A stretch of DNA of 64,000 nucleotides from Dictyostelium discoideum. Lineage: Eukaryota. The stretch covers positions 1,888,001-1,952,000 of the forward strand of contig CM000150.2 in the NCBI GenBank assembly GCA_000004695.1, written 5' to 3'. Below the pieces are notes generated by a model. The model saw nothing but the letters and a program-made list of their open reading frames with translations, was not told where the DNA came from and ran no database searches. Numbering within the stretch: the stretch's first letter is position 1; each line of letters opens with the position of its first letter. Of the stretch, positions 4,439 to 19,610 are shown one piece after another. A program made the translations under genes and the position numbers.

Positions 4439-4508
<70 letters not shown>

Positions 4509-4564
4509 TTTTTCTCTTTTTTTATTAATTAAATTACTTTCGAAAAAAATAAATAATATACTAA

Positions 4565-4572
4565 ACCCATAA
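4565..4572 (+). promoter_or_regulatory. DUSE-like upstream element ACCCATAA, about 65 nt upstream of ncRNA 1.
   Basis: It matches the Dictyostelium upstream sequence element consensus [AT]CCCA[CT]AA, which sits near -60 of ncRNA genes. Confidence 0.6.
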
Positions 4573-4629
4573 TAATTTTTTTTTTTTTTTTGTTTTAAAT
4601 TAAAAATGGAATAAAATATGAAGATTACA

Positions 4630-4734
4630 AGGGCTTCTTACAGCAAAATAAAGTAAATAAATAAGGTGTAGAATAGGTGGGAGACTATGTCGGCCGTGAA
4701 ATACCACCACTAATTAAAAAAACTTCGATCCCTG
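4630..4734 (+). ncRNA. Class-I-like ncRNA, about 105 nt, with an rRNA-derived core.
   Basis: The 5' end AGGGCUUCUUACAGCAAAAU contains CUUACAGCAA, a 10/11 match to the class I RNA motif CCUUACAGCAA placed right after a short 5' stem. The 3' end GAUCCCU can pair with the 5' AGGGC. A T9 run follows at 4735-4743. The core GGUGUAGAAUAGGUGGGAGAC...GCCGUGAAAUACCACCAC parallels the LSU rRNA segment GGUGUAGAAUAAGUGGGAG...GUGAAAUACCACUAC. Confidence 0.55.
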
Positions 4735-5067
4735 TTTTTTTTTGTCAAACACCTTGTTATTACCATATTTTACCTTGGAAATTTTTTCATTTTTTTATTT
4801 TTTTTTTACCAACTATTATTTTTTTTTGCAACATTGTATTGGTATAAATAGACACACAAAAATAAAACAACCAAACCAATTTTTTTTTTTTTTTTTTAAT
4901 TCCAAAAAACCAAATTTTAAAATATTCCCAACTTGTTGTTCTTCAAAATAAAAAATAGTAATAAAAAATTAATAATAAAAAAACAATAATAAAAAGGATA
5001 TTTTTTTTTTCTTGTCTATTTCTTTTTTTTTTATTTGAAGGATTTTGGAAAAAAAAAAAAAAAAAAA

Positions 5068-5075
5068 ACCCATAA
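5068..5075 (+). promoter_or_regulatory. DUSE-like upstream element ACCCATAA, about 64 nt upstream of ncRNA 2.
   Basis: Same consensus and same spacing as at 4565. Confidence 0.6.
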
Positions 5076-5131
5076 TAAAAATTTTTATTTATTTTGACTT
5101 TAATTTAAAAAAAAATTAAAAAAATATTTTA

Positions 5132-5273
5132 AGGGCTTCTTACAGCAAAATTAATACAAAGTAAATTAAAACCAAAGTGTGTAGGATAGGTGGGAGACTT
5201 TGGTCAAGCGTGAAAGACCACCCCTTAGATTTAATTAAACCTACTTCTGAAAAGAAGGAAAACTTGAGCCCTG
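5132..5273 (+). ncRNA. Class-I-like ncRNA paralogue, about 142 nt.
   Basis: The 5' AGGGCUUCUUACAGCAAAAU is identical to locus 1. The core GUGUAGGAUAGGUGGGAGAC...GUGAAAGACCACC is a diverged copy. The 3' GAGCCCU pairs with the 5' end. A T7 run follows at 5274-5280. The next 120 nt (5290-5400) are also GC-elevated and hold a hairpin, TTGAATGT/ACATTCAA. Confidence 0.55.
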
Positions 5274-5643
5274 TTTTTTTGAGTGAATTTAATATTGAGC
5301 CTTTTGGAATTGGTTGAATGTAACATTCAATCCTAACAGTTGTCGAGGAAATTGCGCTACACGAGGAGTAATAACCAATCTTTAACATTAATGGTGTTGA
5401 ATTTTTTGAATTGTTGGGTAATGAAAAAATAAGAATGAAAAAGTTTTAATTTAATTTTTTTTTTTTTTTTATTATTTTTTTTTTGTGATATTATTCGGTG
5501 GTATTCGTTGGGAAAGTGTTTGAAAAAGATTTTTTTTTTTTTTTAAAATTATTATTTTCTTCTTTGGTTGAAATAAAAAATTCAAAAATAGTAATTCAGA
5601 GTAAGGGCATAATTTGATAATTGTAAAACGAGTTTTGGATTTG

Positions 5644-5805
5644 TTAAATTCCACCTTTTGGACCAAGTTTATTAATCAATGAAGCTATCATTTTTAAATT
5701 ATTTCCAAAATTAATTTGAACTGATTTAGAATTAATTTCAAATGTTGTGTTTGAAGATAATGATGATGACGATTTATTTGAAATTTTAGTTAAAGTAGTG
5801 AAAAT
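5644..5805 (-). CDS. Small-ORF family member, type a, 53 aa: MIFTTLTKISNKSSSSLSSNTTFEINSKSVQINFGNNLKMIASLINKLGPKGGI.
   Basis: ATG to TAA lies inside repeat unit 1a and is paralogous to five other copies. It diverges from the type-b copy at 7260 across a shared intergenic region of about 1.45 kb. Confidence 0.45.
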   Translation of the reverse strand: MFTTLTKISNKSSSSLSSNTTFEINSKSVQINFGNNLKMIASLINKLGPKGGI

Positions 5806-6279
5806 CATTTTTTAATTGAATATATTTTATTGAAAAAGAAATATTAGATTTTTTTTGATTTTATTTTTTTTTTGATTTATTTGGATAATGAAATAAAATT
5901 AATTTTCATTTTTGATTAAATAGTTTTTTTTCTTTTTTTTTTTTTTTTATTTAATTGTTTTAAAAAAAAAAAATAGAAATTTAAAATAAATAAATAAATA
6001 AATAAAAAGTTATAAATGGAACCGATATTCACAGTATAGTTATTTAACAAATAAATGTTTTCGATAATAATAATTTTAAAAATGAATAAGTAAGTTAAAT
6101 GAGGATTATCTAATCATTTTAATTTTTGATTAAATCAGATTGAAGAGGTATTACCAACTGAAAAATTATAAATATAATGATAGTACCAATTTTATTGTGT
6201 AAAAAATAATAATCGTTTATACACCCAATTTTATAAATTACTCCACAATACAAAAATTATTTCACCCCACATATTTCTT

Positions 6280-6321
<42 letters not shown>

Positions 6322-6492
6322 GGGTTGAACAGAATTATTTTAGTTAGAATTTAAATTAATTGTTTAAAAATAATTAATATATAAATAAATTTTTGATCAT
6401 TTGTAAATAATTATAACAAAGTATTTTGGTTTTAATTTCAAATAAAAAAAATAATATTACTTTTAAAAGAAGTTAGAATTTTAGATTATTGG

Positions 6493-6528
<36 letters not shown>

Positions 6529-7259
6529 AATATAATTTTAGGTTCAAAGGAATTAAAGATTATTATAAAGAAAAAAATAATTTCATTGGAATTTTGTTTT
6601 TGTTTTTCTAATTATATAGAATTTTTTTTTTTTTTTTAAACAAATAATTATTAATCATTGAATTGAGTTTTTTTTTTTTTTATATTGAAAACCTTAAATT
6701 ATTTTGTTAAACCACTTAAAAAAAAATGAAAAAATAATTAATAAATAAAAACAAATAATTTAAAAATAAAAAAAGGGGTGAATTATGTGTTTGTAATTTG
6801 TGGATTACTCACGATTAAAAGTGAAATATTTGTGTAAAAATGAATTTTATTTGTTCAATAAATAATTGTACTGAATAACCACTATCATAATATTGTTATT
6901 CTTCAGTTGAATATTTATTTTTGATTTTATTCTCTCAATCACTCATATCCAATTATATCATCAATATAATGTTAAGATTAACTTATTTCTCATTTTTTAT
7001 TTTATACATTCTCAAACATCTACTTGTTAAATTCTATTTTTAACATTTATAATTTATTTTTTATTATTTTATATTATATTTTATTATTTTTTTTTAAAAG
7101 TATTTAATAAAAAAAAATGATTTTTCATTTCTTTTCATTATTCAATACAAATAAAATATTATAAAATATAATACAATTAATTAAATAATATAATTTAATA
7201 TAAAAATATAATTTAATTTAATAATTAATAAAAATAAAAATAAAAAATTTAAATAAAAA

Positions 7260-7433
7260 ATGATTTTCACTTCATTAACTAAAATTTTAAATAAATCTTC
7301 ATCATCATCCTTAAATAAAACCTTTGATATTGACCAAAAATCAATTGCAATTAATTTTGAAAAATCAAATATTCAAGTTTATACAGTTTTAAATCCACTT
7401 GGTCCTCAAGGTGGTGTAGGCCCATACTTTTGA
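7260..7433 (+). CDS. Small-ORF family member, type b, 57 aa: MIFTSLTKILNKSSSSSLNKTFDIDQKSIAINFEKSNIQVYTVLNPLGPQGGVGPYF.
   Basis: A complete ATG..TGA ORF conserved in four near-identical paralogues. Differences among copies are mostly conservative or silent. Confidence 0.5.
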   Translation: MIFTSLTKILNKSSSSSLNKTFDIDQKSIAINFEKSNIQVYTVLNPLGPQGGVGPYF

Positions 7434-8311
7434 TTTTATTTTAATCCAAAGAAGAAAAAAAAGATTTCCATCAAACTCTACAAAACAAAACTTTCCGAAT
7501 CAAATATAACCAACCATATGGGTTTAAAAACGAATTTAAAAATCGAAAAACAAAAAAATAAACTATTAAATAAAATTTATACTTTAATTTTAAAATCTAT
7601 TTTTTATTTTAAAGCCTATTATTTTTTTTATTTTATTTTTTATTTTTAAAAAAAAACTAAAAATTAAAAACTAATTAATACTGATTTAATAATAAATTAT
7701 TCATAACACGAGTTTTTGTTTGTTTTACAAGGCGAAAAAAAAAATCAAAAAGAAGAATTAGTTGTTTTGGTCATTTTATTTGCCAAAAAAAAAATTTAAA
7801 AAAAAAATTAAAAAAAAGAAAAGAATAATTTTGAGTTTTTTTTTTAAAACTAAATAACCAAATTAATTGTTTTAGTCATAATATTTATTTTTATAAATTT
7901 AGTTTTATTATTTTTTAACTATTTTTAAGATTTTTCTCATTTTATTTTTATTAATTATTTTCATCATTTTAATTATCACTTTATTTTTATTAGAAATTCT
8001 CATAATTTTAAGAATTTTATTTTTTTGAAAAAGAAGAATAAAAACATAAAAAACTAAAAAAAAATAACTGTAAAAAAAAGAAAGTTTTATTTAATTTTTA
8101 TTTTATTTTATTTTATTTTATTTTTATTTTATTTAATTTTTATTTTTTGTGATTTATATTATTCGGTGGTATTTGTTGGGAAAGTGTTTGAAAAAGTTTT
8201 TTCTTTTTTTTAAAATTATTATTTTCTTCTTTGATCGAAATAAAAAAATTCAAATATGGTCATTCAGAGTAAGGATATAATTTGATAATTGTAAAACGAG
8301 TTTTGGATTTG

Positions 8312-8476
8312 TTAAATTCCACCTTTTGGACCAAGTTTATTAATCAATGAAGCTATCATTTTTAAATTATTTCCAAAATCAATTTGAACTGATTTAGAAT
8401 TAATTTCAAATGTTGTGTTTGAAGATAAAGATGATGATGATTTATTTGAAATTTTAGTTAAAGTAGTGAAAATCAT
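8312..8476 (-). CDS. Small-ORF family member, type a, second copy; it differs from the first by N to D in ...VQIDFGNN...
   Basis: Paralogue of 5644..5805, inside repeat unit 1b. Confidence 0.45.
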   Translation of the reverse strand: MIFTTLTKISNKSSSSLSSNTTFEINSKSVQIDFGNNLKMIASLINKLGPKGGI

Positions 8477-9614
8477 TTTTAAATTGAAAAAGAAATATTA
8501 GATTTTCTATTTTTATTTTTATTTTGTTTTGATTTATTTGGATAATGAATTAAAAAGAATTTTCATTTTTGATTAAATAGTTTTTTTTTTTTTATTTAAT
8601 TGTTTAAAATAAAAAAAAATTAAAAAAAAGTTATATATAGAACTAATAATCACAGTATAGTTATTAACAAATAAATGTTGGATATTAAAAATTAATTATT
8701 TAAAAATAACTAATATAAATAAATATTAGATCATTTTGTAAATAATTTTACCAAAGTATTTTAATTTCAATTTAAAAATTTGTATTACTTTCAAAAGAAT
8801 TAGGAATTTAAGATTTAAAAAAAAAAAAAAAAAAAAAAAATTTAATATAATTTTAGGTTCAAAGGGACTTAAAGGAATTAAAGATTATTTTAGAGAAAAA
8901 AAATGATTTCATTGGAATTTTGTTTTTATTTTTTTATTTTAATTTTATAGAATTATTGATTTTTTTTTTTTTTTAACAAATAATTATTAATCATTGAATT
9001 GAGTTTTTTTTTTTTTAATAATTGAAATCTTAAATTAATTTGTTCAACCACTTGAAAAAAATTTAAAAAAATGAAAAAATAATTAAAAAAATAAAAAAAA
9101 TAAAAAAAATAAAAAACAAATTATTTTAAAATAAAAAAGGGGTGAATTATGTGTTTGTAATTTGTGGATTCGTCACAATCAAAAGTGAAATATTTGTGTA
9201 AAAATGAAAATTATTTGTTCAATAAATAATTGTACTGAATAGCAACTATCATAATATTGTTATTCTTCAGTTGAGTATTTATTTTTGATTTTATTCTCTC
9301 AATCACTTAGATCCAATTATATCATCAATATAATATTAAGATTAACTTATTTCTCGTTTTTTATTTTTACATTCGCAAGCATCGACTTGTTAAATTCTAT
9401 TTTTAACATTTATAATTTATTTTTTATTATTTTATATTATTTTTTTTATTTCAAAGTATTTAATAAAAAAAAAAAAATGATTTTTCATTTCTATTCATTA
9501 TTTAATACAAATAAAATATTATAAAATATTATAAAATTAATTAATCAATATAATTTAATATAAAAATATAATTTAATTTAATATAATTAATAAAAGTAAA
9601 AATTTAAATAAAAA

Positions 9615-9791
9615 ATGATTTTCACTTCATTAACTAAAATTTTAAATAAATCTTCATCATCATCCTTAAATAAAACCTTTGATATTGACCAAAAATCAAT
9701 TGCAATTAATTTTGAAAAATCAAATATTCAAGTTTTTTCAGTTTTAAATAATCCACTTGGTCCTCAAGGTGGTGTTGGCCCATACTTTTGA
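9615..9791 (+). CDS. Small-ORF family member, type b, second copy, 58 aa (...NIQVFSVLNNPLGPQGGVGPYF).
   Basis: Paralogue of 7260..7433, inside repeat unit 1b. Confidence 0.5.
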   Translation: MIFTSLTKILNKSSSSSLNKTFDIDQKSIAINFEKSNIQVFSVLNNPLGPQGGVGPYF

Positions 9792-10656
9792 TTTTATTTT
9801 AATCCAAAGAAGAAAAAAAAGATTTCTACAAAACAAAACTTTCCGAATCTAATATAACCACCCATATGGGTTTATAAAAAAATTACAAACGAATATAAAA
9901 ATCGAATAACAAAAAAATAAATTATTAAAAAAATTTTATTCTTTAATTTTAAATCTATAAATATATTTTTTTTTTCTTTTTTTTTTTTTTTTTCAAAAGA
10001 TAGTACTATTTTTTATTATAAAATAACTTTAATTGTGACCAATTTAGAATATTGTTGGTTGTAATTTAATTTGATTAATTGATGATCAACTAATTCGATA
10101 ACTGATTTATTAAATTTCAATTCCACAGAAATATTGTCGCCTTTAGTTGAAATTTGTGAATCATTTAATTTGCATTTCAATTATTGGAGTTGAGTGATTG
10201 AAAGTGTAATTTTTACCATTTGGCCATTAATTCATCGGAATAGAACATGTTCTTACTTTTTGATGAATTTATACAGTTGAAATCCAACTCCAACCTAGTT
10301 AAAGCAAATGACCATTTCGAGTAATATCAATAACATTTGTTTGACTTGTTTAATATTAAAATTAATACATTAATTTATTAAAATACTCACTTATATTTAA
10401 TGCAAAATTAAAAAAATTATAATGAAATAAATAAAAAATATTGGTTTAATCTCTTTTTGTTTTTATTTTTTTTTTTTTTTATTTATTTTTTTAAAGAATT
10501 AAAATTTGTTAATGTTTATTCTATTTTTAACATTATAGCCCATAATTAAATACACCACAATAAAAATGATAATAAAATACAAAAATTTAAACATTCCCAC
10601 TTTAACAACACAAATCAAATACACAATAAAAATGTTGGAAAATGATTTTGGTTTAC

Positions 10657-13011: not shown

Positions 13012-13920
13012 TCTTTATTTTATTTTATTTATTTTTTTTAAATTGATTGAAGAAAAAAAAAAAAAAAAAAATGAAAAAAAGAAAATAAAAATTATTAAAA
13101 TGGGATTAAATTAAAAAAAAAAAATAAAAAAAATAAAAAAAATTATAATTTCTTGTTTTTAATTAATTTTTATTATTATAATTCTTATAAAACTAAAATA
13201 ATGTTTATGTGTTTTTTTTTTTTTTTTTTTTTTTTTGATATGTTTATTATTAAACCACCTTTCAAGTGTCAAAATTTTTAAAAAAAATAAAAAAAAAAAA
13301 AAAAAAAAATTTAAAAATAAAAAAAAAAAAAATTTAAAAATACAAAAAAAAAAAAAAATTTAAAATAAAAAAACTCTGAGAGTTTATTTTAATAAAAGTA
13401 ATAATAAATAAAATAGAGTTTATTTTAATAAAAGTAATAATAAAACCTTTTTTTTATTTTTTCCTTTTATTATTATTATTTTTTTATTATTTGTTTTTTT
13501 ATTTTTTTTATTTATTTTTTTATTTTTTATTTTTTTTATTTATTTTTTTTATTAATAAAAATAAAAGAAAAATACTAAAAACATAAAAATATTATTGTTT
13601 ACCATTAGTATTTTAATAACTATTCTTTATATAGAATTTTTAAATTTCGATGCAAAACCCTCCCAATTTTCTTTTTTTTTTTTTTTAATTTAAATTTATT
13701 ATTTTTAATTTTTTTTTTTTTTTTTTAATTTTTTTTTTTTTTTTAAATTTTTTTTTTTTTTTTCAAATATTTTCAAATTTTTTAACTGTCAAAAATTAAA
13801 TATTTGAAGTGAAAAATACAATTCGGATTATTATGAAAATTTATTAAAATTTCATTGATAATTTTTGTTTTTTTTTTTTTAATCTTACACATCAATATAT
13901 ATTTCTAAAAAAAAAATATA

Positions 13921-19602: not shown

Positions 19603-19610
19603 ACCCATAA
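19603..19610 (+). promoter_or_regulatory. A third DUSE-like motif, ACCCATAA, with a GC-containing hairpin region 40-110 nt downstream and no clearly delimited RNA.
   Basis: The consensus octamer sits in an A/T desert. Downstream lie CCAGTCCAACTGG (palindromic) and GTGCACACTTTCATGTGTTTTTTCC (hairpin plus T6). Confidence 0.2.

Follow-up and report, generated by a model that had tools for sequence, protein, structure and literature searches.

The Class I RNA genes DdR-67 and DdR-66 of Dictyostelium discoideum: a probable L1-stalk domain of large-subunit rRNA on a Class I scaffold

The subject here is a pair of small RNA genes within 64,000 nucleotides of Dictyostelium discoideum DNA (GenBank assembly GCA_000004695.1, contig CM000150.2, positions 1,888,001 to 1,952,000 of the forward strand). 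We call this whole stretch the window, and positions are counted from its first letter unless another sequence is named. A first-pass annotation had read 4560-5400 as a tandem pair of Class I-like genes, each driven by a Dictyostelium upstream sequence element (DUSE) and built around a core derived from large-subunit (LSU) ribosomal RNA (rRNA). The pair is real and already has names. Base for base, 4631-4735 is the published and curated Class I RNA gene DdR-67 and 5133-5274 is DdR-66, both on AX4 chromosome 1 and both on the forward strand. We argue that the core of each is very probably a complete L1-stalk domain of LSU rRNA, helices 76 to 78 (H76-H78), that is under selection. We also argue that the two RNAs are mimics of the L1 stalk that may bind the ribosomal protein uL1, a reading to which we give a probability of about one half.

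Each gene is preceded by an exact copy of the DUSE ACCCATAA, its putative promoter element, at 4565-4572 for DdR-67 and at 5068-5075 for DdR-66. Both copies are also in the published table. The distance from the start of the DUSE to the first G of the RNA is 66 nt in DdR-67 and 65 nt in DdR-66, or 65 and 64 nt to the A that the first-pass annotation counted to, so its figure of 64-65 nt holds. The published 'duse_dist' values are 57 and 56 (Kjellin et al. 2021, PMC7919456, Table S2/S3). The number of ACCCATAA copies in the window is the chance rate, with 3 found and 3.3 expected. Two of the three, however, lie at the family-specific distance 5' of the only two exact copies of CTTACAGCAA in the 64 kb (4637-4646 and 5139-5148), so chance is not a viable explanation for the arrangement. 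A weak TGTG-box-like AAATATG lies just 5' of the DdR-67 start (4614-4620), and its published score is low (3.46).

The remaining ends of the genes are also as first described. The two loci have a common 20-mer 5' end, AGGGCTTCTTACAGCAAAAT, at 4630-4649 and 5132-5151, and it includes the Class I motif. In DdR-67 the 5' stem GGGCUU (4631-4636) leads into the motif UCUUACAGCAA (4636-4646), and the RNA closes with the 3' stem GAUCCC (4727-4732) and CUGU (4732-4735). In DdR-66 the same elements are GGGCUU (5133-5138), UCUUACAGCAA (5138-5148), GAGCCC (5266-5271) and CUGU (5271-5274). The end stem forms 5 of 6 pairs in DdR-67 of AX4 and all 6 in DdR-66. Both genes end in CCCTGT and run into a stretch of T that would serve as a terminator of the RNA polymerase III (Pol III) type, T9 at 4735-4743 for DdR-67 and T7 at 5274-5280 for DdR-66. 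Such T-runs are found downstream of many Class I genes (PMC7919456). Counted to the U of CUGU the RNAs are 105 and 142 nt long. DdR-66 alone has an extra 3' hairpin, CUUCU-GAAA-AGAAG at 5244-5257, which is predicted by both the minimum free energy (MFE) fold and the centroid fold.

Both loci are correctly assigned to Class I, and they are not newly discovered genes. Kjellin et al. list the same sequences in their supplement at 104 nt (DdR-67) and 141 nt (DdR-66), and the tables there place DdR-67 (ddi_can_429) at 1892629-1892734 and DdR-66 (ddi_can_269) at 1893131-1893273 of chromosome DDB0232428. Their covariance model scores are 17.9 and 20.7, and the authors' classifier accepts both at 36.3 and 39.1 (PMC7919456). 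The pair resembles the canonical Class I RNAs (DdR-21; Rfam RF01414) in having a DUSE about 60 nt upstream, a 5' G, a 6-bp stem, the motif, the CUGU end, the T-run, intergenic clustering and expression. The motif UCUUACAGCAA matches the Class I consensus CCUUACAGCAA at 10 of 11 positions in both RNAs, and all five universally conserved positions are kept. There are differences too. The stem is GGGCUU and not the usual GUUGAC, the variable loop is a structured rRNA domain, and both RNAs exceed the usual Class I length of about 42-65 nt (median about 60). RF01414 aligns end to end in E-value mode (model 1-56) with 4631-4734 at 31.5 bits (E 0.00097) and with 5133-5273 at 24.7 bits (E 0.052), with one large insertion each, in the variable region. 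Both scores are below the 41.5-bit gathering score. The Class I covariance model, on which the first-pass annotation had made its call depend, thus matches each RNA over its full length and leaves both under the family threshold. A scan of the whole window at Rfam gathering thresholds gave no match; signals arise only in E-value mode on short stretches. Both RNAs belong to Class I on the authors' curation and on five of the seven defining features that we checked; the two on which they fall short are length and the gathering score.

Both genes are flagged as expressed in the published RNA-seq data. The samples are duplicates of growing cells, aggregates, and tipped aggregates or fingers, in that order. 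The counts are 105 and 126, 212 and 255, then 134 and 104 for DdR-67, and 86 and 104, 445 and 578, then 901 and 684 for DdR-66. The libraries were size-selected at 18-70 nt, and a read had to be a full 50-mer with at most 1 mismatch and a distinct 5' end (PMC7919456). The raw counts of DdR-66 rise about 8-fold from growth through development.

It is the core that sets these RNAs apart. The eukaryotic LSU rRNA model of Rfam (LSU_rRNA_eukarya, RF02543) matches the DdR-67 core at 4660-4715 (model 2452-2508, 36.2 bits, E 5.8e-8) and the DdR-66 core at 5179-5223 (model 2458-2502, 24.2 bits, E 1.5e-4). The first-pass annotation had called the cores diverged copies of a conserved 25S/28S rRNA segment, and that segment can now be named, since the matched part of the model is the closed domain H76-H78 of the L1 stalk and the match is colinear. 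The outer part of the domain consists of a 7-bp outer stem, a 9-nt bulge UGUAGAAUA and a 5-bp helix GGUGG/CCACC. The inner part consists of GA, a short hairpin and a 12-nt strand with GUGAAAUA at its end. The DdR-67 module (4659-4715) has H76 as AAUAAGG/ACUAAUU, loop A as UGUAGAAUA, H77 as GGUGG/CCACC, then GGGAG, H78 as GAC-UAU-GUC, and loop B as GGCCGUGAAAUA. The DdR-66 module (5172-5229) has loop A as UGUAGGAUA, the same H77 and GGGAG, H78 as GAC-UUUG-GUC, and loop B as AAGCGUGAAAGA.

The D. discoideum 26S rRNA gives the closest comparison. The genome FASTA of Kjellin et al. (2021) has one LSU rRNA copy close to the end of contig DDB0220052 or the start of chromosome 1, and the L1 stalk of this copy reads CCTAAAAGGTGTAGAATAGGTGGGAGGGGCAACCCGACGGTGAAATACCACCCCTTTTGG. 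DdR-67 has 19 consecutive bases, GGTGTAGAATAGGTGGGAG, in common with it. The likeness stops exactly at the closing stem of H76. Neither the Rfam local alignment nor the 26S comparison finds anything in common between the DdR cores and the H75/H79 flanks. A similarity that ends at the closing helix of a domain, with the flanks unshared, argues for a domain-precise module and not for a piece of an rDNA pseudogene. The likeness also reaches the bacteria. A short stretch of the DdR-66 core has weak blastn matches (E-values 0.04-0.5) to the 23S rRNA of every one of 5426 E. coli genomes, and at the annotated coordinates of one E. coli 23S (locus L001) GGUGG at 2120-2124 and CCACC at 2174-2178 are helix 77, flanked by H76 and H78. 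The order H76, loop A, H77, GGGAG, H78, loop B, H77', H76' is colinear with the stalk of 26S and of E. coli 23S, and the core of the T-loops is the same. The modules of the Class I RNAs differ from the rRNA stalk in standing outside the rRNA, inside a small DUSE-driven and probably Pol III transcript. They also differ in that H78 and H76 have been resequenced by compensation, so that H78 reads GAC/GUC or GGC/GCC instead of GGG/CCC.

The same L1-stalk module is present in four Class I RNAs of D. purpureum, namely DpuR-27, DpuR-28, DpuR-29 and its identical copy DpuR-30. These lie on four different scaffolds with a DUSE at each and are not syntenic with the DdR pair, and module identity is 64-78%. 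As in DdR-66 and DdR-67, a terminal stem (of the GGAU type in DpuR) is combined with the Class I motif and the module, and the terminal stem covaries, reading GGAUUC/GAAUCC in the D. purpureum relatives. DpuR-28, DpuR-29 and DpuR-30 also have a second 3' hairpin, a different one, at the place of that of DdR-66. The first-pass annotation had offered a novel Class I subfamily as one reading. The long chimeric members are real; they are already named, and D. purpureum has them too. Searched by exact strings, the published core Class I RNAs of the Group 1-3 species contain no L1 module, and there is one chance GAAAUACC in dfa_can_103.

We built an alignment, A1, of 12 distinct modules, one from 26S, eight from DdR RNAs and three from DpuR RNAs. 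A covariance model made from it, R1, detects the L1 stalk of E. coli 23S at 53.3 bits (E 6.6e-14), and E. coli is not among its training sequences. R1 scores the DdR-67 module at 76.9 bits and the DdR-66 module at 71.6 bits, and it has no further match in the window or in nine dictyostelid loci (250 kb searched). In A1 the stalk pairing holds in 82.8% of cells against 75.6% in shuffles, and none of 500 shuffles reaches the observed value. Covariation scores 0.207, where slid partners score no more than 0.125, and again no shuffle of 500 reaches the observed value. Six pairs change on both sides. The first-pass annotation had proposed asking whether the rRNA-like core covaries so as to preserve the rRNA helix, and the helices are indeed kept by compensatory changes. 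Pairing is 100% in H77, where DpuR-27 has the compensatory GCUGG/CCAGC. It is 97% in H78, which differs between 26S (GGG/CCC), the DdR RNAs (GAC/GUC) and the DpuR RNAs (GGC/GCC).

The loops are where the module has changed least. Identity to 26S is 7-9 of 9 in loop A and 8-11 of 12 in loop B, and it is lower in the helices (19-22 of 30) and in the apical loop of H78 (0-2 of 4). DdR-67 is identical to 26S at 9 of 9 positions of loop A and 10 of 12 of loop B. Loops that are more conserved than the helices or the apical loop form the pattern of a constrained three-dimensional fold and not of decay. GGGAG, the uL1 recognition sequence, is invariant in all 12 modules. So are all six residues at the core of both T-loops, AG..A in loop A (its residues A, G and A, T-loop 1) and UG..A in loop B (within UGAAA, T-loop 2). 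The equivalent of A2169 is invariant as well, and the equivalent of G2112 (G10) is kept in 11 of 12. In this sequence-level test the invariant columns of A1 are A12, G13, A17, T40, G41, A42, A43 and A44.

Comparison of strains points the same way. The syntenic neighbourhoods, between the aspartate aminotransferase gene aatA and the cyclin gene, were fetched through the 90% protein cluster of the aminotransferase; the aatA product flanking our pair matches the AX4 protein at 100% identity. Either the pair or one of its members is present in the D. discoideum assemblies L009 (13035-13141) and L010 (8060-8165) and in the D. cf. discoideum assemblies L007 (13013-13154) and L008 (13698-13810). The RNAs and the segments from DUSE to start are mostly 79-97% identical to AX4, and the lowest value is 73%, for the DdR-66 copy of L008, which has a 29-nt deletion. 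The segment from the DUSE to the transcription start of DdR-67 is 94% identical to L009 and L010 and 79% to L008, and for that of DdR-66 the strains range over 81-91%. The L1 modules are 91-97% identical to AX4, against 40-60% for the spacer between the genes and 36-46% for the downstream DNA, which serve as the neutral comparison. In L009 and L010 DdR-67 has an A-to-G change in its motif (CUUACGGCAA) and a perfect terminal stem, 6 of 6 pairs. The 3' hairpin of DdR-66 is conserved in L007, L009 and L010. From these alignments we conclude that both loci are under selection, since their RNAs and promoters are conserved against flanks that diverge fast. The claim of the first-pass annotation, that two copies that diverged and still kept both ends argue for function and not for a dead rDNA fragment, is strengthened by the strain and species comparisons.

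What would such a module do outside the ribosome? The protein L1 binds H76-H78 in rRNA. Its domain I holds on to H77 (P1), to the junction and to the base of H78 (P2), and its domain II touches loop B. In the natural uL1 operators of mRNAs the core is the same and the loop-B (J2-1) region is far shorter than in rRNA (PMC5689012). In yeast a GGGAG two-hairpin motif in the 5' untranslated region (UTR) of RPL1B binds Rpl1 in an electrophoretic mobility shift assay and is needed for more than 10-fold repression. The same motif has been described for all known Rpl1 sites, from bacteria to H77/H78 of human 28S (PMC7732827). At the level of sequence the uL1-operator motif, GGUGG-GAG-GAC...GUC...CCACC, is present in both DdR-66 and DdR-67. 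They are like the leader of the bacterial L11 operon, the archaeal L1 mRNA and the yeast RPL1B 5' UTR in having an extraribosomal two-helix GGGAG motif of the H77/H78 kind. They are unlike these operators in that the latter act in cis in the mRNA of L1 and have a short loop B. The DdR RNAs have a complete stalk and stand alone between the cyclin gene and some small open reading frames (ORFs), with no uL1 gene nearby.

Since DdR-66 and DdR-67 hold all the sequence determinants for uL1 and for the T-loops, we propose that they are L1-stalk mimics. The scaffold would be that of a normal Class I RNA, with the usual short variable loop replaced by a complete and independently folding L1 stalk that includes both interlocking T-loops. 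The module would bind uL1 (Rpl10a) in the manner of 26S rRNA, of the bacterial and archaeal L1 operators and of the yeast RPL1B 5' UTR. RNA and protein together would make up a small cytoplasmic ribonucleoprotein (RNP) that buffers, sequesters or chaperones uL1, in effect a decoy. Transcription, stability and the Class I protein partners would come with the Class I scaffold. Class I RNAs, which are specific to dictyostelids, are abundant and tied to multicellular development; they are mainly cytoplasmic and protein-bound, with Rnp1A/CIBP as a partner. The rise in the DdR-66 raw counts makes a tie to development possible. Docking of tRNA would also be possible on this proposal because the platform for the tRNA elbow is intact.

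That last point can be made into an explanation of its own, in which the RNAs bind the elbows of tRNAs, perhaps deacylated ones, in trans and with or without uL1. The L1 stalk's head is a double T-loop that docks the tRNA elbow, and the same module does this in RNase P and T-box Stem I (PMC3664808). The six invariant core residues and the platform positions, as defined there, are common to all of these and to the DdR pair. Loops A and B are moreover conserved in full, which is more than the uL1 operators of mRNAs retain with their short loop B. We nevertheless consider this explanation unlikely. The T-loops also form the high-affinity rRNA-type site for uL1, through domain II and loop B, so their conservation does not discriminate between the two ligands. 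RNase P and T-box Stem I have further contacts with tRNA, through the catalytic core and the specifier, whereas no anticodon-reading or second tRNA contact is apparent in DdR-66 or DdR-67. The full conservation of the T-loops is compatible with uL1 affinity of rRNA grade, with docking of the tRNA elbow, or with both.

One can also imagine that the module is a passenger, a fragment of rRNA captured once in a tolerant variable loop of an ancestral Class I gene, with the RNAs doing only what Class I RNAs do in general. The variable region of Class I RNAs is described as varying in sequence and structure. Other long Class I RNAs have unrelated inserts, such as the 85-nt group of DpuR RNAs and the T-arm-like hairpin of DpuR-22. 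DdR-67 is dispensable to one lineage, and several relatives lack the pair at the syntenic site. If it were neutral, however, the insert should have decayed evenly, and it has not. The contact loops and GGGAG are invariant, the helices covary, and the module is nearly unchanged across strains whose neutral flanks are just 36-60% identical. It has also persisted, as several paralogues, in D. discoideum as well as in D. purpureum. We regard a mere passenger as slightly less likely still than a tRNA-docking RNA.

An improbable third alternative is that the decoy is meant for some other ligand of the L1 stalk, such as an export adaptor, an E-site factor, an assembly factor with an L1 domain of the Utp30/Cic1 type, or an rRNA-modifying activity. 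Paralogues with an L1 domain bind short duplexes much as L1 does (PMC5689012), and Nmd3 touches the L1 stalk during export (PMC6795138). Neither RNA has a feature specific to any such factor, and most of these factors recognise the uL1 protein or a larger ribosomal surface and not bare RNA. Finally, we reject as hardly credible the idea that the cores are dead rDNA, or that their expression is only apparent and comes from cross-mapped rRNA fragments: the similarity to 26S is high over the 19-nt stretch, but it ends precisely at the domain boundary, the longest run identical to 26S in our alignment is about 20 nt against reads of 50, and the DUSE, the motif, the stem, CUGU and the terminator are each intact and conserved.

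It must be noted that several observations count against the L1-stalk mimic as we propose it. Some concern the fold. The outer H76 stem is just 64% paired in A1, DdR-66 has a U-to-G change in loop B (GAAAGA), and MFE folding gives z-scores of +1.15 and -0.40 and recovers just H77 and the terminal stem, in part. This lack of MFE support is expected because the fold would be held by tertiary contacts. Others concern the distribution of the genes. DdR-67 is deleted in D. cf. discoideum L007, and the DdR-66-like copy of L008 is without the 3' hairpin and the T-run and has CAGCAU in its motif. In D. citrinum, D. firmibasis, D. dimigraforme, D. purpureum and P. violaceum the 10 kb to each side of aatA contain neither a Class I motif nor an L1 module. 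The published read counts are modest. Given the size selection of the libraries, the abundance of both RNAs is under-sampled, and the full lengths of 104 and 141 nt are predictions. Then there is the matter of place and partner. uL1 normally joins the pre-60S particle in the nucleus, whereas Class I RNAs are mostly cytoplasmic, and every binding partner, uL1 as much as tRNA, is one that we infer.

A link of Class I RNAs to rRNA, to 26S or to the L1 stalk was found neither in the text and supplement of Kjellin et al. (2021), nor in later papers on Class I RNAs, nor in a literature search for L1-stalk mimics. Among the hits in the PDB no solved structure of D. discoideum uL1 could be identified. 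Within the searchable literature the L1-stalk module in Class I RNAs appears to be unreported.

Some other features of the window and its relatives deserve mention. An unbroken run of about 64 T lies at 4440-4503, between the start of the cyclin gene and the DUSE of DdR-67, and it is absent or much shorter in the other genomes of the D. discoideum clade. The block at 5300-5390, 3' of DdR-66 (GGAATTGGTTGAAT...CAATCCTA...AGGAAATT...CAATCTTTAACA), is common to L007 (about 13400-13480) and is not found in L008, L009 or L010. Just 3' of DdR-66 there is a tandem duplication of about 2.4-2.7 kb, with copies at 5480-7600 and 8150-9950. Its blocks are 82-96% identical (96% for 5575-5820 against 8243-8488, for example), and its copies carry one family of small ORFs, with MIFTSLTKILNKSSSS... 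at 7262-7430 on the plus strand and similar ORFs on the minus strand near 5600-5810 and 8270-8480. The intergenic interval of AX4 is much larger than that of its relatives because of this duplication region. The third exact ACCCATAA, at 19603-19610, is followed by TTTGTGCACACTTTCATGTG and a T-run about 60 nt downstream, with no Class I motif or Rfam match. It may be a chance occurrence or belong to another DUSE-driven small RNA.

Further observations come from outside the window. In the supplement of Kjellin et al. (2021) DpuR-22 has a hairpin, GGGGUUCGAAUCCCC, that looks by eye like the T-arm of a tRNA, and ARAGORN finds no tRNA in DpuR-22. Six RNAs of 85 nt (DpuR-5, DpuR-6, DpuR-13, DpuR-16, DpuR-21 and DpuR-26) have a long GC-rich hairpin in common. 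The inserts of DpuR-22 and of the 85-nt RNAs suggest that the Class I loop can host captured RNA modules. In a passage of the D. discoideum mitochondrial genome DDB0169550 within that supplement, AAUAGGUGGGAG lies about 35 nt 5' of an ORF with an L11 signature (...GAGTASMTPPLGPNLGQYG...). It recalls the leader of the bacterial L11 operon, in which an rRNA-like site is bound by L1.

No molecular function is established for the Class I RNAs. The partners of the module in DdR-66 and DdR-67, uL1 and the tRNA elbow, are known from ribosome biology, and the L1-stalk module turns the question of Class I function into one that can be tested directly. Within the literature examined, rRNA mimicry for the binding of ribosomal proteins has so far been a matter of cis elements in mRNAs. 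If our reading is true, rRNA mimicry would here be put to a new use, in a conserved small RNA that acts in trans and carries an rRNA domain in full, and the Class I scaffold would be an expression cassette for captured RNA modules. We put forward one further step, as a tentative idea with the odds somewhat against it. DdR-66, DdR-67 and their D. purpureum relatives may form, with uL1, a free cytoplasmic 'mini L1 stalk' RNP that controls the supply of uL1, or captures deacylated tRNA by its elbow, in the switch from growth to development. If this is so, that RNP would be the first trans-acting small RNA known with a whole functional rRNA domain, and it would give the Class I RNAs their first molecular mechanism.

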